Below are positions 1 through 60,838 of a DNA stretch of 64,000 bases, piece by piece (within the stretch, counting starts at the first letter, position 1; each line of letters starts with the position of its first letter). The DNA comes from Rhizophagus irregularis (lineage: Eukaryota): the NCBI RefSeq assembly GCF_026210795.1, contig NC_089429.1:2294001-2358000 (forward strand). Direction: 5' to 3'. The translations under genes and the position numbers were made by a program. The notes under the pieces are model-generated. The model saw only the letters and a list, made by a program, of their open reading frames with translations, made no database searches and was not told the DNA's origin.

Positions 1-48
1 TAATTTAAATTATATGTGAATTTTACATAAATATAATAAACTACTTAC

Positions 49-710
49 GATCTAAAATATTAAATAATTTTTTAAAGAATTTAGTTAGTTAAATTATATA
101 TAAATATAGTAGCTAATAGAATTAAATAAATGACAAACTTACACCCTATAGTATTATTAATGTTAAATTATAATCAATTAGATCAATTAGATAAAATATT
201 ATAATTGTATATAAAAATTAAATATATATGGTAACTTACAATCTAATTATTTAAATAAATAATATTATTAATTTAAATTATATGTAAATATTTTAAATTA
301 ATATAAAATTAAATACTTACTTTCTATTACATCATAATTATTAAGCAATTATATTAATGAAAAAAATTAGTTATTTGAAACATTTATATAAAATACAATA
401 AAAATAAATAGCTATTAACTTACCAACTATAATAACATTAATAAAATAAATTATTTGATTATATTTAGAAATAAATAATTCAATTATTATAAATACAGTT
501 AATTTAAAATTTTAAAAATTATTTGTTTATAATTTACAAGCTACAATATTATCATTAAATTTTTCTGAATAAGTTTACATACTTTTGTCTTCCTCGATTT
601 CTGAAACTAGTTTAAATTTGTTTTAAAAAGTATTTAGAATAATTTCAAATTTATGTTAGATATCTATGTTCATGCTATATGCTTTTACCTTTGCCATTAC
701 TTTGACCCAT
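49..710 (-). CDS. 5' part of a microexon-array gene (continues past the left edge); predicted N-terminus MGQSNGKEIEEDK(TF)ENWY...
   Basis: ATG at 710 with an in-frame stop upstream. Exons 710-689 and 600-583 (18 nt) are followed by 3-nt exons 540-538 CTT, 426-424 TTG, 323-321 AAA, 242-240 ATT, 145-143 GGT and 51-49 ATC. Each 3-nt exon sits between TAG and GTAAGT (GTAAAT for CTT). The spliced frame is open. Confidence 0.75.
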
Positions 711-2152
711 TACTGAATAATATTATTGGAATTCTTCCTGAAAATCATAGGTAAATACAATTAAGCGCCTTTATTCGAGCATATATAGTTATTTGTGTAA
801 TTTGTGTAATATTATTTATGCAAAATGCAGATGCCAAGATTTCGGTTCCAGATATAGTTAACTAGTGTAACAGAACCGTTAGATATTATTTGATAAACAC
901 TATGACAAATTAAATGGTAATTACTAAATTAAAAAACTTTCTTGTCGATCATTTAACCAAAAATCTTACAAAGAAAAAACCAAAAGTTCTATGAAAGAGT
1001 TAAAATTATACTTACACGAGTCTTTTTTTCACTCCTTTTATTGTAGGTTATATATATTTTGTTGAAAATATTGACCAAAGACAATTTGAGAAAAGCGTTG
1101 AATATTCTGAAAAAATGAAAAAAAAGGTTTACATTTCTTTTGATACAAAATTCAAACAGGAGTATCAAGCGTCAGTACAATAGTGCACTGTGCAAATTTT
1201 GTTATGAAGTAAAAGAGGATGGGCATATGAAAAAGTTGCTCAAAGTATATAATAAATAAAGATCAGGCAAGTCGCAGATATAAAGGATAGCATGATATCA
1301 TAAGATTTTCCACTACGCGTCTACACCTAGTGTACCTTGCGGTTCCTGAGAGTTGTTACTTAGGAAAAGAGTTTTGTCATAACTACGAGACTTTTCTGGA
1401 AGAATAGGCGATATTATTTATAAGTTTTAGTTTTTTTTTAGTTTTTAGATTTTTTGTTGTTTTTTTTATTGATACAGACATACAGTTTAATTTAGTTTAA
1501 CACTATATAGTTAGGTTTGGTGTCTTGTTTAGTTGTTTTATCTTATTTTAAATAGTTCTAGTTTAGTTGCAGTATAGATGTACTGTATATTTTCATAGGT
1601 CTACATCGCTGATGTTAGACACTTAAAGTATAGTCCTTGATTATTTGAAAAAAAATAAAAAAAAATTTTTTTTTTTGTCGTGAAACAAAACGAAGGACTA
1701 TACATGTTTATGAGCATATTGGATCATGTGGTAAAGTCCATTTGTCACGACATCACGTCATCACATCACAAATTTTGTGCTACAAAAAAAAAATGCATTG
1801 CAAGTGTTACATGATCTACATGTTCATTTATTTATTTGGGGTCAAATAGGTAGTATTACATAAATCGGGATCTTAGTCATCTTACCACACTATCGAGAAG
1901 AGGAAAAGGTCAAGATAGGAAGAATAAACTATGAACGTTTTATAGCGCCAAAAATATTTTGCTGAACTCCGAAATATTAAGAGATTATGTAACACCTAAA
2001 GTCGAATAATTGAAGAATATTTTTGTAAGTTGCGGAGAAGAAATTGAGTGGACTGCAATAAAAAGGAAGCTTATGAAGATACAAGAGTTAAACAAGTGTT
2101 GGAAATGAACTTGGGATTGAGCAATTTTAAAGAAATTGATAGCTCTTTGGAT

Positions 2153-19565: not shown

Positions 19566-21981
19566 TCATCTTGAATTATCAACTTTAGTATATTTTCCTA
19601 TTTTAGTTAAAAAAAAATGTTATAAATTGTTGTATGAAAACTATAGATACTATTTATTATGTGCGTAAATAAAAATTTACTTACTATTTTCTTGAGTTTC
19701 ATTCGTTTCATTGTTTAATTCCTCAAAATTACGCTTTCTTGAAAATTTTACGGGTACAGTTAAGCTTTGAGTAACGGAATTTGTATTCTGTGTGGATGAT
19801 CTGAAAACGTACGATATATTATTAACAAGTTACATATATTTATATATTAATAATTAATTACCTTTGAATATTATTTATATCAAATTCATATTCTCGTGTG
19901 ATATATTCTAAAAATTAATAAAAGCCATCTAAGTTGATATAAAACTTAAAGAAGTAAATTCAATTATCATTATCTGATCGTCTAACTTAATGCTTCAGAT
20001 TTTTTCATTAATGGCTAATTATAACTTCATACCTTGTTTAACATTATATGAGATCATTGAAGAAGAATTTATAGTTGAAGCTTTTGAAATTAAAGAACTT
20101 AATGCTCTACTTGTATAAATTGCTTTTGGATGAGATTTTTCACTAAATTCGGGTCCAAGTTGCTTTAATTGTATTAATTCCAATCTTTTTTTTTCAGCTT
20201 GCTCAAGTATTTCGTTTCCATACATTTTGATAAAAGAATCCCTGATTTCATATCTAGTTGGTCTTTTTAAAGGGTCAGAATCCCAACATTTTTTCATTAA
20301 ATTTGCAAAACATTCAGGGGTATCATTTGTAATTTCAGGGCGTTTTCCATCTATAATTTCATAAATAAGTTCAAGATTGTGTTCAATATTTGCAAAAGGT
20401 TTGCAACCTGTTGTAACTTCCCACATAATCATACCAAAACTATATATATCAGATTCTTTTGAAAATGCAGCACCTTTAAATATTTCTGGTGCGATGTAAG
20501 GTATTACTCCATATATTTCATTATTTGATAATGTATTGTTTGCAGGTTGTGATAATCCTAAGTCTCCAACTTTCCAATCCGTATTTGACAATAACATATT
20601 TCCACTATGAATATCTCGATGTATAAAATTATTTTTATGAACATTTTCGAGTCTAAAATAAAGCATTTAATTGTTAATAAACCAACTATAAATTAGAAAA
20701 TAGATTAATTCACTAAAAATATACAATAAATACCCAAATAATATTCCTTGTAAAATAAACAATTTGCCGTCCCATCTAAGATTTATAAAGTTCTTTTGCA
20801 AATAATCATGCAAATTTCCACCTTCTGCATAGGGCAATATTAACATATATTCTTTTGTTATAGGATCTTGTGTAATGCCATAACAGTCAATTACCCAATA
20901 ATTTTTACATTGATAAAGTGATCTTAGCTAAAGAATTAATAAGTCAATTAATACAATAAGACATTGCAAGTATATAAAATTTAGTAAATATTACCTCATT
21001 TAGAAAATGTTTACTGATATTTTGTGAATCACGCAATTTTTTTACAGCAACATCAGTTCCCTCCCAAGTCGCTTTATAAATAATACTGAATCCTCCTTCC
21101 GCTATTTTCTTTAAATTCGTAATTTGAGAATATGGAATCCACTCTATTCCTATGATTGGAAGATTATTACGAATAAACGAATGCACCTCAAATGGACTAC
21201 GAATTGTCTTTTTCATATAATTAGCAATAGAATGGAGATTCTTATTGTTAATTCTTGTAGAGGCAAGAAATTCCTCTATAATGTAATTTTCACTTCTGAT
21301 ATCTGTAATATCAATTCTAATGAATGAAATTCTTTTGCATTTCTTACATTGAGATTGATCTGCAATTCCAAGAATTATATTTGTTGTTAAACAATACCTA
21401 CATCCAGTATAAATTATATGGCAATGTAAACACCATTTTTGACAATAAGATTTTGACTCTTGTTGTATATATTTTAGTTCTTGATAACAAACTACACATT
21501 GATTATGACTATCCCACCATGGTAAATATAGAATCGGAATAGACTTTTTAGTCAAAGTTGATTCTACCCATCCAGCAGAAGAAAACTGGTAATCACAATA
21601 ATCAGGAATTAAATTATAACAATAAACTAACGATTTATCTTTTGTGACTACTTGTGTAAAATATAAAATCTCAGAACAATATTCGCACCATTCTTGAATG
21701 TTTGTTGAATAAAAATTATTTCTGGTTGCTTTATGCTTAATGCACTGAGAATTATTTGTACTTATACGTGCGTCCAAGTGTGTATTATTGTCTGTTATAT
21801 ATTGAATATACCAAAATAAACAATTTTTGCAATATTTTTGTCTAAGCTTGAGTGTCTCAGAGTATTCAATTCCACAATAATTACATTTTTCCTCATTATT
21901 TTTAAAAGGAATAAATAAAACAGGTACAGGACTAGATTTTAATTTTGATGTAGGATCAAATGGATTGTTATCTGTATTCAT
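19566..21981 (-). CDS. TKL-group protein kinase with Cys-rich (multi-CxxC) N-terminal domain, about 664 aa, 6 exons
   Basis: Exons 21981-20995, 20927-20734, 20652-20033, 19907-19862, 19800-19685 and 19597-19566 are all GT-AG and phase-consistent. Motifs IAEGGFS, VAVKK, HRDIHSGN, GDLGLS, YIAPE, SDIYSFG, CWDSDPLKRP. Confidence 0.9.
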
Positions 21982-22438
21982 AATGTTGTGTTGTATTTCA
22001 AGAAAATAGTTTATAAAAATTAAATGTAAAAATCATAAAGCAATATTTATGAAGTTACATAACAAAGTGAAATTCTACAGAAGTTTTCTTTAAATATTCT
22101 ATATAGAAATAGTTGTACAGTATATTGAAAATCCGCCATCATGCATAAATTTCAAGCAAGATTTGCTTGCTCAATTTAGAAAGTTTCGCGGCTTAAATTC
22201 TCCGTCAATGAATATTATTTTGTAAACCTGTACTACCAATCTGAAATTATGTGACGATCAATTTGACCTAGAATTTTCTTTTTTTACGATGAAATAATCA
22301 AATAACGATAAAAACTATAAACTTTCTTAATAAACTATAACATGTCGTTTCATCAATTCTTTTTATTATTTAGAATTTGGGCTTTGGAAAGTAATCTTGC
22401 TAATATTTTATACCTTGTGTAATTATGTAATTATAAGC

Positions 22439-27802: not shown

Positions 27803-29972
27803 TTACCTTTGAATATTATCTATATCAAATTCATATTCTTGTGTAATATATTCTAAAAATTAATAAAAGAAATCTAAGTTAAATATGAATATTAAGAAAT
27901 AAATTAAATTGCTTTTATCTGATCATATCAAGTTTTTTACATTAATTGTTAATTATCAATGTACTGTAAAATAGTAAAATACCTTGTTTCACATTTAATG
28001 AGATCATCGAACTCATAGTTGAAGCTTTAGAAATTAAAGAACTTAATGCTCTACTTGTGTAAATTGCTTTCGGATGAGATTTTTCACTAAATTCTGGTCC
28101 AAGTTGCTTTAATTTTATTAATTCCAATCTTTTTTTTTCAGCTTGTTCAAATACCTCGCCGCCTCCATGCATTTTGCTAAAAGAATTCTCGATTTCATAA
28201 CTAGTTGGTCTTTTTAAAGGGTCAGAATCCCAGCATTTTTTCATTAAATTAGCAAAACATTCAGGGGTATCATTTGTAATTTCAGGGCGTTTTCCATCAA
28301 TAATTTCACAAATAAGTTCAACATTGTGTTCAATATTGGCAAAAGGTTTACAACCTGTTGTAAGTTCCCACATGATCATACCATAACTATATACATCAGA
28401 TTCTTTTGAAAATGCAGCACCTTTAAATATTTCTGGTGCGATATAAGGTACCACTCCATATATTTCATTATTTGATGATGAATTATTTGCAGGTTGTGAT
28501 AATCCTAAGTCTCCAACTCTCCAATAGCATCGAGATAATAACATATTTCCACTATGGATATCTCGATGTATAAAATTATTATTATGAATATTTCGGAGTC
28601 TAAAATAAAACATTTAATTGTTAATAAACCAATTGTAAATATAGAAAATAGATTAATATACTAAAATATACAATAAATACCCCAATAATATTCCTGTTAA
28701 AATAAACAATTTGTCGTCCCATCTAAGATTTATAAAGTTCTTTTGCAAATAATCATGCAAATTTCCACCTTCTGCATAACTCAACATTAACATATATTCT
28801 TTTGTTATAGGATCTTGTGTAATGCCATAACATTTAATAATCCAAATATTGTTATCATCACATTGATAAAGTGATCTTAACTAAAGAATAAATAAATAAA
28901 TTAATACAATAATTATTAAAAAACACATTGCAAATATATAAAATGTAAATATTACCTCATTTAGAAAATGTTTACTAATATTTTGTGAATCACGCAATTT
29001 TTTTACAGCAACATCAGTTCCTTTCCAAGTCGCTTTATAAATAATACTGAATCCACCTTCTGCTATTTTCTTTAAATTCGTAATTTGAGAATATGGAATC
29101 CACTCTATTCTATTGACTGAACGAAGTTTATCACGAATAAACGAATACATTTCAATTGGGCTGCGAATTGTATCGTTGTCCATATAATTAGCAATCAAAT
29201 GATAATTATCATTTTTAATTCTTGTAGAATCAAGAAATTCATCTATAATGAAATTTCCACTGCAAATGTTTGTAATACCAATATTAATGAATGAAGTTCT
29301 TTTGCATTTCTTACATTGAGATTGATCTGCAATTCCAAGAATTATATTTGTTGTTAAACAATACCTACATCCAGTATAAATTATATGGCAATGTAAACAC
29401 CATTTTTGACAATAAGATTTTGACTCTTGTTGTATATATTTTAGTTCTTGATAACAAACTACACATTGATTATGACTATCCCACCATGGTAAATATAGAA
29501 TCGGAATGGACTTTTTAGTCAAAGTTGATTTTACCCATCCAGAAGAAACCTGATAACCTGATGACTGCTTCTTGTAATTACAAACTCCGCAGTGTTCATT
29601 TATACTACCGAAAATGTGCAAACAAGATGGATATCCTATGAATACTTGTGTAAAACATAAAATCTCAGAACAACATTCGCACCATTCTTGAATGTTTTTT
29701 GTATAAAAATTATTTCTAGTTGCTTTATGTTTAATACACTGAGAATTATTTGTACTTATAAGTACGCCCAAGTATGTATTGTTGCCTGTTATATATTGAA
29801 TATACCAAAATAAACAATTTTTGCAATATTTTTGTTTAATTTGTGTCTTGGAGTATTCAATTCCACAATAATTACATTTGTCCTCATCGTTATTAAAAGG
29901 AATAAATAAAACAGGTACAGGACTAGATTTTAATTTTGGAGTAGGATCAAATAAATTATTATCTATGCTCAT
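27803..29972 (-). CDS. Paralogous Cys-rich TKL protein kinase (copy 2)
   Basis: Exons 29972-28956, 28880-28681, 28599-27983 and 27852-27807 are GT-AG and in phase, with the same kinase motifs as copy 1. The acceptor of the next exon (about 27745) is missing, so the C-terminal tail is uncertain; reading into intron 4 gives a stop at 27805-27803. Confidence 0.85.
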
Positions 29973-32307
29973 AATGTTGTATTTCAAGAAAATAGATTAT
30001 AAAAGTTAAATGTAAAATTATAAAGCAATATTTATATTTTATGAAGATACAATAACAAAGTGAAATTCTACAGAACTTTTCTTTAAAGAATCAAGGATAT
30101 TCTATATAGAAATAATATAATTATGCATATTGAAAATCCGCCATCATGCATAAATTTCAAGCAAGATTTGTTGCTCAATTTAGAAAATTTCGCGGCTTAA
30201 TTTCCGTCAATGAATATTATTTTGTAAATCTGTACTACCAATCTGAAATTATGTGACGATGAAATAATCAAATAACGATAAAAATAAACTTTCTTAATAA
30301 ACTAAAACGTGTTGTTTCATCAATTCTTTTTATTATTTATAATATGGGCTTTTGGAAAGTAACATTGCTAATATTTTATAACTTATGTAATATAATATAT
30401 TATCGTAAATTACACGCACGTTCAAAAATAAAAAACAATAATGTTATTAAATGTCTAATGTTCATTAATTTAATGAATAAAAAAAAGAACACGGATTATT
30501 GAAAAGTGGTGTTAAGTGAATATTTCTATTAGCTAATAAATAGAAATGCAAACTTACTACAACGTTAAGATCTTTTTTTGAAAAAAATGATTTTTTACTT
30601 GTAGACGCACTCAAACCTTACACGTTTTTTATAAATATTGATTGTTGACAGTGGTTATTTTGGTATAAAATCCCTTATAAATGAAATAAATAAGTTTAAT
30701 TTTTTGTATTTTGTATATAAGCTAAATATTCAATAAATGACCGAAAATGAACCATTATATAATATTCGTTCTATATCGTAATAGATATTTAAATTTTACA
30801 AATAAATCTAATTTTAAATTTATTAGACTAAACACAAATATTAAATATAAAAGACTAATTTAATACATTCCATGATTAAAATGATTTTCATTTCATAATT
30901 TATTTCTCAATACGATGTAAAAAAAAGGTTTAAACTCGATTAACCAATCAATAATAGAATTTAAGATATATTTTTTTAATAAGAAAATTTTCTTAAGATC
31001 ATTTGAGTTAATTACACGATAAAAACTTAAATATATTATTAACTCAGAAGACTACTTCAGTTTTTTCTTTGGATACTTTCCTTAAAATAAATGCGTCCCA
31101 AATCTTTGATAGAATATCATTAAATAATTACACTATTCTTTTTACGCATCCAATTAATATATTCACTTGTACAATAAGTTCAAAACTTAAAAATAACTTT
31201 TTAAAATATTGTATGGTCGTCAATAAAAGAAAAATATTTTTTAAACTCTTTTAATAAAATAAGTACTTTATAACCTTTAAAATATTACGTATAATTACTA
31301 ATTATTCCAGAGCGGAGCGAATATTGTCTATAAAGGGTATATTTTTTCTAATCAATGACTTAAAGAAATATATCAATCAATGTTGAAGTTTGACATATAA
31401 ACATTAGTTATTATAAACAATTTGTACGCTTACAATATCATTGTTATCCCGTTATGGTAAAAAAATTGAATTGGGCTTTTTAATAAAAGTGGATTCTATC
31501 TATCTGTTTAGAAGAAATTTTATAACAATTTGGAACATATTCAAATGATCACTCAATCTACATAATTAATAGGATGATGACATGTAGATGATAAATAAAC
31601 ATCGGATGGTGAATAATTTGGGGTTATTTGTTAAAATATGAAACCTCGGAAGTTGGAACAACATCCACATCATTTTAATTTTGTTTTTAGAATCTATTTC
31701 ATATTCTTCATTGTTTAATTTCCGAAATATATAAAAAAGTAATTATTACGAATATATTGTGAAATTATTATCAAACTATTACATATTAATCTATTACTAA
31801 AAAAGCCAAGTTCTTAATGTCGCTCTCCTATGACGTAAAAGTTAGGCATGTCAAACTCGATCGGATCGATCGGTTAGGTTGTACAAATATCTGTGATGTA
31901 CAGTAGGTACACGAACCACTCCTTCATCTTTTTAAATCTTTGCAATAAAAGTCATTAATAAAATATGTAATTCTTTCCTTTTACGATTATAAATTCCGTC
32001 AAATAAAAAAAAAAAACGACGATCATTACAGATTTACGGCCAAATTAGGCGGAATATGAAATAACTGACAAAGTAAATATTTCCTGATCGCCGATCATCT
32101 ATCTCCATGGAATATTAGGTCCGAATGATCGACAAATCAGGAATGTGGTGGCTTAGTTATAATTCTGACCTGTGCGACAATATATCGGGACCACCACTCC
32201 GAAAAGTAATTAATTTCCTATTTTAACGCATTTTTTTTTTTTTCAAACGAATTCTTTCTTCATCCTCTTTTTTTTCTTTCTCCCTCTCTCTTACTTCGCT
32301 TTACAAT

Positions 32308-53489: not shown

Positions 53490-53687
53490 TAATTTTCGTA
53501 AGTAGATTCGAAAATATTTACGTATTACTATGTATGGTAAATGATGAACTTATTATATAGATTAGATTATCTTTTTTAGTAGGTGTTACCACATTGTGAT
53601 AAATGCTACAAAGTTAATTGAGAATTTAGCATATAAACAAAATTTTCTTTTTTTTTCTCATAATTTTTTATCTAATTTTTTACAATT

Positions 53688-56600
53688 ATGAACGAAACTG
53701 CTGCACCTAAAAAGAAAACATTGAAAGTAGTTGAAGATGGCGCGGAACAAGTAGAAGCCGCGACAAATGTAGCAGTACCATTTGCAAATTTTTTACCATT
53801 TATAGAAGAGGTGTCCAGGTTACTTAAAGAAATCGTAGATATATATCAAACAGCAGTAATTAATAAAGGAATATGTGGTGTAATGTTAGATAGAGTAGCC
53901 ATAGCTGAATCAGCTACAAAAAAATTCTTAAAAGTCCGAGAGAATGAAGAATTTTTTTCAGCAGAAAATTATGTTAATTTACAAAAATTAGTTACCGTAG
54001 TTGGTAAAATACGTAAATTTCTAGCAGAAATTTCTCAAGTTAGGGGATTAAAAAAACATACGCAAGCTAAAAATATTGAAAAGACTGCAATGGATTTAAA
54101 TAAAGAATTTGATTCTACCATTCAACTTTTGGAATTTGCTTTCATGGTTGATTTCAGTTTACGTGATGATATTGATAATAAAAAGATCAGAGCTGATATC
54201 GAAGATTTAATTGAGGTAATGTGTTTGATATAAATAATTGACATTTTAATTTTTAATACGCATGAGATAAATATAGTAAATTTAATAAATATTCATAATA
54301 GAATCTTCAAGCAATCGGAGGTGGTGGTGGTAGATTTGATCCGAATAAAAATGTCTCCACAATAATGGATAAATCCGAAACTAACATATTTCAAAGTGAA
54401 TTACTTCCATATAATGATTTTGAAGAAGTTGAAGTTGGAGAAAATGTTGGTAAAAAAATAAAAAAATATAAAAGAATAAAAAATGGGGTTAATGATTTCG
54501 TTGTATTAAAATTAGTAGCAGATGAAAGTATTAAGGAAGAGGCTAAGAATAATATTAAAAATCAAGTTACAATTTTAAGTAAATTAGAAGAATGTGATAA
54601 TATTATTCAATTTTTTGGTTTAACTACTATTGATGGTAATAAATGGTTTTTAGTAACTGAATGGGCTGAATATGGTAATTTACGCGAATTTTATAATACT
54701 TTTGGACCACTTGATGTTAAGGCGAAAGTACTATTTGCTATTGATATTTCTAGAGGTTTAAGTTTCTTGAATGCTGTTGAGGTAATTATCTTTGATGAGG
54801 GTTTCTTGTTTTAAAATTATATTTATATACGTTTATATATTTAACCATTTCTTGATTTCCTATAAATAGATTGTTCATTGTGATATAAGAGCCGAGAATA
54901 TTTTAATTACAGATTATCAAACGGCCAAGATCGCAAATTTTAGTTCAAGTAAAGCCGTAACTGATGTTACAAAAAACCACAAAACAACACTAGAACGTGT
55001 TCGATATTGTGCTCCAGAAAATTCAGAAAAATTAGGAACACAAACTAAATATAATACAAAGAGTGAAATTTATAGTTTTGGTATCTTACTTTGGGAAATC
55101 GCCGAAGAAAAAGTTCCTTATGCGAATTATAACGATATTATGGCTATTACTGAACTTGTTGGTGAAAAAAAATACCGTGAACCATTTTCTGATGCTTCTC
55201 CTTTACCAAAAGAATATCAAGATATTGCAAAAAAAGGTGTATTCATCAAAATTTTCACTTATCTTTTTATTTATAATATTAACTTTTGTAAATATCTATC
55301 TATATTTTAGCTGTTGATCATGATCCAAATTATAGGCCTTCATTTACAAAGATATTTACCGTATTACAAGATCTATATATGAAAACTTCTTCTAATTCTA
55401 TTGGTTCTTCTAGTCCTATTGGTTCTGTAAGACGACAAAGAATCTTGTTGAAAGATTTCATTAATTCTCTTTCTTTAAAGAGTATTACTTACTTACTATA
55501 TATTTATTTAAAAATCAGGAATGGATCAAAAAGAAAATGGAGGAAGAAGATATTAATTACTTTGAATATAATGAATTTAGCAAACCTATTCCAATTGGTA
55601 AAGGAGGATTTGGCTTTGTGCATAAAGCGGAAACTAATGATAAAAAACAAGTTGCATTGAAAGGTCTCATAGATTCAGTAATCGATGAAAATGTTATTAA
55701 AAACTTCGTAAAAGAGGTAAGAATCGTATTTAAATCCATCATAATGTATAAGTAGCTTGTAATAAAAACTATTCTTTTAGTTAAAACTTCTTCGTATGGT
55801 CAGCTATCATGACAATATTAATAGATTTCTTGGAATAACAAAAGGTAGTCTAATTTATTGAATTCATTCTTATAAATTTAATTAATTATATTTTAAATTA
55901 AATGGGCAGATAATATTGGTTATGTTATGGTATTGGAATACGCTAATGAAGGAAATTTAAGAGAATATTTAGAAAAAAAATTTGATTCATTACAATGGGA
56001 GAATAAGATTCAAATGGCATTAGATATTACACGCGGATTATTATGTTTACACTCGAGGAACATAATTCATAGAGATTTGGTAAATCAATAATTTATAATT
56101 TATTTATTTTTATTACATTTTTCTTAAATAATAATTTTTAGTAACGTTTACAATTATTCTTTAGCACTCAAAAAATATATTAGTGAATGACGGTAAATTA
56201 TTAATTGCAGACTTTGGATTATCTAAACAATTAACGGAAGTTACATCTAATTCAACAAGTAACAGGATGGGAATTATTGAATATGTTGAACCACAATGTA
56301 TAAGGAATGTAAATTATGTAAAAGATAAAAGGTCTGATGTTTATAGCTTAGGTGTTTTATTATGGGAGATTACAAGTGGTCGACCTCCTTTTTGTCATAT
56401 GGTAGAACGAGATATGTTAGGTTATCACATTAGTCGTGAGAATCTTAGAGAAGAACCAATTGAAGGTACGCCTTTAGAGTATCAACAACTTTATCAAAAA
56501 TGTTGGGATGGAGATCCGGAGAAAAGACCCGATATTAATCAAATATATAAAGAAATTTTAAGTCAATCCAATGTCAATGATATTAGCGAACAATCCGAAG

Positions 56601-56689
56601 ATTCATTAGTAAATAATGATAGTCTTGATAATTTAAACATACAATCAGCCCAATCAGATCTATGCATAAAAACCGAATTGGTATTATAA
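53688..56689 (+). CDS. MLKL-like helical N-terminal domain + pseudokinase + TKL kinase (tandem-kinase protein), about 815 aa, 8 exons
   Basis: Exons 53688-54215, 54302-54781, 54870-55236, 55311-55426, 55519-55716, 55781-55844, 55910-56079 and 56165-56689 are all GT-AG and total 2448 nt in one frame. Domain 1 has no Gly loop, HCD and NFS. Domain 2 has GKGGFG, VALK, HRDLHSKN and DFG. Confidence 0.8.
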
Positions 56690-59517: not shown

Positions 59518-60838
59518 CAGTTCACGACATAAATATCCGGAATTTTATCACAATATGTAAAAATATAATAAATTTTATTTTTTTTATTTCAAATTTATAC
59601 CATTAATAGCTTAAGATGTGCAGATAAACATACTTTAAAAGTTAGTAATTTATCGTATAACCATTATTTTCTATGACCATGTTAATCCGATCTGACATGC
59701 TATCTGCTAAACTAAAGAAGAGATTTTTATCAATATTATCCCATTCTTGCTGAATTACGCCTTGAAAATCATTAGCACCAAGTGATTTTTTTTTCATAAC
59801 CCAATTATTAACCCTTCTTTCTACATTTCCTTTAAGAATCGCCCATAAATTTTCGATGGGGTTCAAGTCAGGTGAGTTTGCAGGCCAATCAATAACCGGA
59901 ACATTATTAATCACAAAAAATTGATGAGTAAGCTTTGCGGTATGCATTGGCGCATTGTCCTGCTGAAAATTCCATCCATAACCAGCATGATAAGCATTAG
60001 GAAGTAGTTGAGATTGAAGGATTTCACGGTATTTAGCAGAATTCATGTTTTCTGTAAATAATGCAACTCCAATTGGCCCTTGGCGGCAAAATGCACCCCA
60101 AACATGAACCTTATATGGATGTTTTACCATAGGATGTACTGGATGTGGGTTTCCAGCCTTGTAACGTACAATTTGAGTATTACGAAACGTCTGAAATGTA
60201 CTTTCATCTGAAAAAATTGTGTGAGTCCAGTCATCTTGGATGTGATTTAAGGCCCATTGAAGACGAGCTTCAACATGACTTTCTTTAAGAAGAGGAACAG
60301 ACCATGGTCTACAAACAATATAATTAAGTTTATTTTTAAGAGTACGTTATACAGTTCGGGTTGATACATTAAGATCTGGATACAAATTATTCAGCTTTGT
60401 TGTCATTAAAGCTGAAGTTGTTGCATTATCATTTTTAAGAAGACGGCCAAGATATCGACGTTTTTTGGTGTCAAAACAAGAGGACGACCAGGGAACGGGT
60501 AAGTGTTCAACACTTCCTGTTTTTTTTAGACGATTGATAATGTCATATACTGTAGACTTTGGAAAACCAGTCATTTTAATTATTTCAGAGGGTTTTCGTA
60601 TATTATTATCCCATAGCTCCTTAACAGTCAACCTTTGCATTTCAAATACCGAAGTGGGTGCCATGATTTTATTTTGCTGCTAATAAACAATCAGGTGAGA
60701 ATTTTTCACGCTATATTTATGTTTAAAAAGGGCTGATCAACTTCCATTTTAATTATTATTTTGGTTGCACAAGACTTGGTGTGACAGCACTCCTTTATGC
60801 ATAAAAATAAAAATTCCGAATATTTATGTCGTAAACTG
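59518..60838 (-). mobile_element. Full-length Tc1 (DD34E) transposon, 1321 bp
   Basis: About 30-bp TIRs CAGTT(C/T)ACGACATAAATAT(C/T)CGGAATTTTAT with TA TSD on both sides. Confidence 0.95.
59642..60664 (-). pseudogene. Tc1 transposase with an internal stop codon
   Basis: HTH N-terminus; FSDES, QQDNAP and SPDLNPIE give DD34E. TAA at 60349-60347 interrupts an otherwise continuous frame. Confidence 0.9.

Follow-up and report, generated by a model that had tools for sequence, protein, structure and literature searches.

A candidate array of consecutive 3-nt exons at the 5' end of a putative Rhizophagus irregularis gene

The closest described system to the locus considered here is found in the truffle Tuber melanosporum, in which an expanded NACHT-ankyrin (nank) family shows alternative splicing of multiple, or even tens of, codon-sized (3-bp) microexons, according to the available parts of four papers (PMC10197012, PMC4986451, PMC3689799, PMC13449251), all of which trace the statement to Iotti et al. 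2012 (PMID 22289772). As far as the literature was searched, this is the one gene family in which codon-sized exons have been described in arrays. In Coprinopsis cinerea, 27 three-nt exons have been recorded in 26 genes, almost all of them single in the part of the source available (PMC12230235). The micro-exon genes (MEGs) of Schistosoma mansoni, proposed as a parallel in the initial annotation of this DNA, have exons mostly of 15 bp (range 6-81, given as 3-81 in its abstract), introns of 0.1-5 kb and a signal peptide, as described in the accessible portion of that report (bioRxiv 10.1101/2023.06.21.545858); the truffle nank genes, with their codon-sized microexons, are the closer parallel. 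No report of 3-nt exon arrays was found in the literature on AM fungi (titles and abstract starts; supplements could list such genes), which agrees with the initial annotation, where no described run of 3-nt exons was known in this lineage. Microexons are not mentioned in the passages on exon, intron and splicing in PMC10234402 that were available.

The window, i.e. the whole stretch of 64,000 nt of Rhizophagus irregularis DNA that was analysed, contains on the minus strand of positions 1-700 five units of the form TAG-NNN-GTAAGT, with triplets at 426-424, 323-321, 242-240, 145-143 and 51-49 and separating introns of, in order, 100, 78, 94 and 91 nt. These coordinates and lengths were re-found exactly as first annotated. 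A sixth unit at 540-538 has the donor GTAAAT, a 42-nt intron upstream and a 111-nt intron downstream. The visible triplets number six, and both the window and its source contig (X1 record 1, extending 13 nt beyond position 1) stop inside the next intron. The proposed gene model is as follows.

689..737, minus strand: first coding exon; acceptor CAG at 740-738, 27 nt of 5' UTR, ATG at 710, 22 coding nt, phase 1
607..688, minus strand: intron 1; 82 nt, GTAAAA...TAG
583..606, minus strand: second exon; 24 nt, acceptor TAG at 609-607, donor GTATGT
541..582, minus strand: short intron; 42 nt, 3' part conserved in a paralog
538..540, minus strand: 3-nt exon candidate CTT; covered by the paralog piece 515-564, donor GTAAAT
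424..426, minus strand: 3-nt exon candidate TTG; TAG/GTAAGT
321..323, minus strand: 3-nt exon candidate AAA; TAG/GTAAGT
243..320, minus strand: intron; 78 nt, homolog of the intron starting at 48
240..242, minus strand: 3-nt exon candidate ATT; DNA-like contigs run through its donor, one contig in each of X18 and X19 straight into GGT
143..145, minus strand: 3-nt exon candidate GGT; TAG/GTAAGT, directly after ATT in an X18/X19 contig
49..51, minus strand: 3-nt exon candidate ATC; TAG/GTAAGT
1..48, minus strand: first part of another intron, which the window edge truncates; donor GTAAGT, homologous to intron 320-243; the gene continues outside

The clustering of these units exceeds chance by a wide margin. 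Among 20,000 dinucleotide shuffles of positions 1-700, 19,928 contained no unit, 72 contained one and none reached two. YAG is found three bases upstream of GTAAGT at all five such sites in 1-700, compared with 1/37 in the rest of the window. When the six units are aligned on their triplets, invariant columns make up 8/9 of the splice-signal positions, 0/3 of the triplet and 1/51 of the others, and all six triplets differ (CTT, TTG, AAA, ATT, GGT, ATC). The G+C content of the intron cores is 9%, against 34% for the exon model. All acceptors and donors of the array are intact and the spliced frame is open; unspliced, no frame in 1-740 stays open beyond 46 codons, and each of the 7 introns, if retained, introduces an in-frame stop. 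Six ordinary introns of kinase genes in the window, picked by eye, measure 67-86 nt, and none (0/6) has a GTAAGT donor. The array introns are thus of ordinary size for the genome with better donors than those of the kinase genes, and the 42-nt intron at 541-582 is shorter than all six measured. The combination of fixed splice signals with diverged triplets and mostly diverged intron cores is what selection on splicing would leave, and is less in keeping with decay of a repeat.

Contigs from sequencing runs provide further evidence on the gene start (24 runs listed, 20 containing part of the window, from 9 studies; seven runs compared). X18 and X19, from the same study, are presumed to be RNA by an automatic guess, no run that contains part of the window being listed as RNA, and intron-containing contigs (947-1397; 660-736) are also present there; X5 and X1 are DNA-like. 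Unmatched contig ends are readable for 30 letters, which places the stretch beyond exon 2 in spliced contigs outside view. At least five distinct exon-1 contigs occur in X18, differing from the window by 2, 3, 4, 4 and 11 letters, the last of these being intron-containing, and at least four occur in X24. The exon-1 matches, spanning 696/697 to 736/744, comprise five X18 contigs and two listed for X19, mostly with 2-4 differences, while X20 and X21 have nothing on exon 1 among the matches listed. In X18/X19 paralog contigs that leave the window at 696-697, the end of exon 1 is directly joined to the sequence of 606-583 with intron 1 missing; intron 1 is kept in three X24 paralog contigs (records 21-23). 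The best paralog contig (X18, leaving at 696) agrees with exon 2 at 20/23 displayed letters (by eye), and two of the three mismatches fall at third codon positions and are silent when read from ATG 710. Taken together, the locus looks like one member of a multi-copy, expanded paralogous family, and the family looks transcribed and spliced, although intron-less DNA copies are a possible source of the joined exon 1-exon 2 contigs. In X18/X19 no spliced transcript of the exact window copy was seen, all exon-1 contigs there differing by at least 2 letters, and most of 1-690 lacks contig cover in the presumed RNA runs. One X18 exon-1 contig with 2 differences keeps the Gly codon found at codon 2 of the window copy; the strain differs by 6 in 451 letters upstream, and summed depths suggest that this contig may be an allele of the window copy. 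Separately, a paralogous contig of run X5 over 182-261 has a depth of 163.5 compared with 9-26 for contigs of the locus, hinting at many near-identical copies, depth not being a copy number.

The paralog contigs also refine the model. Of the two ordinary exons first annotated ahead of the triplets, the one carrying ATG 710 stands and the second, given as 18 nt, probably needs revision. Because paralog contigs join the end of exon 1 to bases 606-601, exon 2 is placed after TAG 609-607 and not after CAG 603-601, and is most likely 24 nt long (606-583) rather than 18 nt (600-583). The longer exon adds Val-Ser after Lys7 and keeps both phase 1 and the open frame, so the claim that all junctions are phase 1 and the product free of stops holds for the revised model too. 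The assignment of phase 1 rests on ATG 710 and the donor at 582, since the X18/X19 contig described below is also open in phase 0. Another ATG, at 697 (phase 0), is not taken as the start, because it is missing from the displayed paralog ends and silent changes favour the first frame. The spliced product visible in the window is a model of 21 residues, the first 15 of which are polar or charged, with no hydrophobic stretch detected by eye. An N-myristoylated Met-Gly start was considered as a family trait and discarded because codon 2 is Ala, through C>G at 706, in most paralog contigs (4/5 exon-1 contigs in X18 and 4/4 in X24). In addition, a possible upstream non-coding exon at 1106-1016 on the minus strand (acceptor CAG 1109-1107, donor GTAAGT at 1015) could splice to 737; X18/X19 contigs cross both of its splice sites unspliced, and this exon is unsupported.

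Contig evidence on the triplets themselves begins with a paralog in X24 (record 21), which matches at 664-744 and at 515-564, the latter with 7 differences in 50. The second piece covers the CTT unit together with the end of the 42-nt intron before it, so that both are conserved in this paralog, which strengthens the sixth exon at 538-540, regarded at first as weak. An AG-CTT-GT unit is also present between joint sides in X5 and X1, and a contig whose depth equals that of X24 record 21 carries a 28-nt piece that ends at 444 and is joined to 515. Among the between-joint pieces listed for X5, other AG-NNN-GT units are found in 4/12 (GAC twice, GGA, CTT) and an AG-NN-GT unit in 1/12 (by eye). One contig sequence, present in X18 and X19, contains the end of intron 320-243, then ATT, and then GGT followed by sequence of 53% G+C, leaving the window at 239; it is anchored by a 35-nt AT-rich match and comes from one study. 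In phase 1 it would encode W-F, compared with W-Y in the window model, and its upstream part stays similar to the intron. DNA-like contigs (four in X5, two in X1) continue past ATT through the donor to 234. The simplest reading of the ATT-GGT contig is that of a partly spliced paralog transcript with the upstream intron still present, but it may instead be a paralog with an ordinary long exon at this point; under either reading, ATT and GGT adjoin each other within coding sequence of the family. Plant introns that lie upstream of a microexon tend to be removed late, as stated in the part of the source available (PMC8831610), and retention of the upstream intron in the ATT-GGT contig would fit this tendency. 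Joints from 265 to 418 and from 267 to 470 in other contigs, whose sides of about 23 AT-rich letters belong to a class that is often false, give a hint of copies with fewer units.

The best reading of these observations, and one that is considered likely, is that a spliced protein-coding gene begins at this locus, with two short exons and, after them, at least six triplets joined serially as exons. This sustains the initial view of a real gene, with frame-neutral, phase-1 triplet exons at the start of a multi-copy spliced gene. Exon recognition would proceed by intron definition, with introns removed one after another and three bases left behind each time, each triplet in phase 1 closing one codon and opening the next. 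Because every unit is frame-neutral, N-terminal residues can be added, dropped or recoded by changes in the units, and copies would come to differ in a short N-terminal peptide as units are gained, lost or altered by point changes. Such a variable peptide may serve in recognition, an analogy with the truffle NACHT-ankyrin genes that is offered as a lead. Growth of the array was probably due, in part or wholly, to units of intron plus triplet being duplicated in tandem, as one intron pair indicates: intron 320-243 and the intron starting at 48 are identical in 33/38 aligned columns (z 5.9, local alignment), and this homology between introns three units apart argues for duplication in tandem. 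When the cut intron is included, local alignment finds no significant similarity in the other 27 of 28 intron pairs, and global alignment of 21 pairs gave no clear homologous pair (best p 0.033). Older duplicated units would have diverged everywhere except in their splice signals.

Three other accounts have been weighed against serial splicing, the first two of which overlap with it. It is possible, if somewhat less than an even prospect, that the array in addition diversifies the protein at the level of splicing, the triplets often being skipped in many combinations to yield many isoforms. Every unit is frame-neutral, 56/64 subsets of the units give stop-free, distinct peptides, and the Tuber melanosporum nank genes provide a precedent, as far as the available text on them goes. 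Nevertheless, a stop arises in 8/64 skip patterns, including the skipping of 426-424 alone, and 5/6 donors are of full consensus, which would favour inclusion. Moreover, no isoform was seen among the contigs, and the sole informative contig has ATT and GGT joined in order. An unlikely account accepts the family as real but takes the window copy for a paralog that is silent or in decay, its triplets having ceased to be spliced. It would explain why no identical transcript contig appears in X18, X19, X20, X21 or X24; the related X5 unit with two bases between AG and GT implies that broken units may exist, and a Tc1-type transposase lies within the window. On the other hand, every acceptor and donor is preserved and the frame remains open, the X18 contig with the Gly codon and 2 differences may be an allele, and absence is not demonstrable from contigs. 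A third and highly improbable account takes the array for a non-coding element, such as a decayed AT-rich tandem repeat, in which AG-NNN-GTAAGT arises by accident. Although ordinary tandem repeats yield the pattern elsewhere (46/49 loci in prokaryote genome records, judged from triplet lists only) and two of the array introns are duplicates, such repeats mostly recur with one triplet where six different triplets with fixed signals are found here, Tandem Repeats Finder reported no period near 80-110 nt in 1-1500, and the two exons immediately ahead of the array are spliced in paralogs.

The pattern was also sought elsewhere. A six-frame search of the window for short family motifs gave matches at the microexon locus only. 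An exon-1 pattern, too narrow in having a fixed Gly codon, gave 2 chance matches in a bacterial gene among metagenome contigs, and a wider exon-1 pattern gave 5 matches in viral contigs, none with a unit within 1 kb. The array pattern found a single locus in viral contigs, which was rejected as a 42-nt repeat with a single recurring triplet. In prokaryote genome records 49 loci were found, of which 46, on their triplet lists, are tandem repeats with mostly recurring triplets; the three exceptions are on short contigs of 18-20% G+C from one metagenome bin (a 'Mycoplasma' MAG), as follows.

L024:1-1230, plus strand: varied-triplet array, 37 triplets
L032:490-1900, plus strand: varied-triplet array, 37 triplets
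L049:2100-3245, minus strand: varied-triplet array, 31 triplets

Their near-identical introns are mostly 28-33 nt, and the arrays are in phase 0, with one codon per exon, and are much longer than that of the window. TAA or TAG occurs in 0/105 triplets (column-shuffle mean 6.58, P(0)=0.00055), third-position G+C is 0.39, 0.37 and 0.20 for L024, L032 and L049, respectively, and of four aligned terminal triplets two differ silently and two are identical. In the bin, 5 contigs carry telomere-like repeats and kinases contain in-frame TGA, signs that point to a ciliate-like contaminant; the telomere-like repeat differs from that of Nyctotherus ovalis as given in the available part of PMC2633312. A rival view of the L032 array as a 33-nt coding repeat draws on its being open for 237 residues under TGA=W, but this is at odds with the spacers of L024 and L049, which vary in length. 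Just downstream of the L024 array, a frame at 1618-1863 on the plus strand has a Cys/His pattern without a Pfam match, which we take to resemble a RING finger. These three arrays show the one-codon-exon design elsewhere and are no evidence on the window copy.

The window has a G+C content of 20-35% and, besides the array, contains genes for protein kinases, one F-box-like gene and a transposase of the Tc1 type. For one window protein, the nearest Atlas clusters are eukaryotic, and Mucoromycota is the phylum most often represented in them. Two close kinase-gene paralogs at 20019-22032 and 27942-29996 on the minus strand have a long Cys-rich N-terminal region, for which no Pfam match was obtained in the one of the two that was scanned. 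A multi-exon gene at 53676-56689 on the plus strand has two kinase-like regions and a helical-looking N-terminal region without Pfam match, and the Tc1/mariner-type transposase at 59642-60679 on the minus strand is split over two frames (DDE_3 match).

A wider proposition is put forward tentatively and is regarded as rather doubtful in its full form: that AM fungi possess a gene family, expanded and expressed but unannotated, in which long runs of 3-nt exons that split codons encode the N-terminal peptide, that this arose independently of the truffle family, and that genomic gain and loss of units together with skipping at the RNA level produce a hypervariable recognition peptide. If true, a second family in a symbiotic fungus of a distant phylum would suggest that protein variation one residue at a time is recurring and convergent. 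Such a family, in well-studied plant symbionts, would also be one likely to escape gene finders and short-read aligners, and the locus offers a direct test of how the spliceosome handles consecutive 3-nt exons.

In comparison with known systems, the locus shares with the Schistosoma mansoni MEGs, as far as the available account of them goes, runs of short exons with lengths in multiples of three (here 24 nt and 3 nt), and having been overlooked by automatic annotation is counted as a common trait. Unlike in those genes, the triplet exons of the window are 3 nt, the introns range from 42 to 111 nt, and polar or charged residues make up the first 15 positions of the product. Coprinopsis cinerea demonstrates, in the part of its report available, that fungal spliceosomes include 3-nt exons, but no run of six is described there. 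The truffle nank genes, on what the available texts say of them, are likewise a fungal family of multiple paralogs with a run of consecutive 3-nt exons (here six units at the DNA level), whereas the phyla differ (Mucoromycota here, Ascomycota in the truffle), and six triplets are visible in the window against 'tens' in the truffle. In those texts the nank genes are defined by NACHT and ankyrin domains and by alternative splicing, and the comparison made here concerns the build of the array alone. On that basis the window locus looks built like the truffle nank arrays, with no claim of membership; the array design itself is already published, and what is new is a candidate 3-nt exon array in a distant fungal lineage and in a phase that splits codons.
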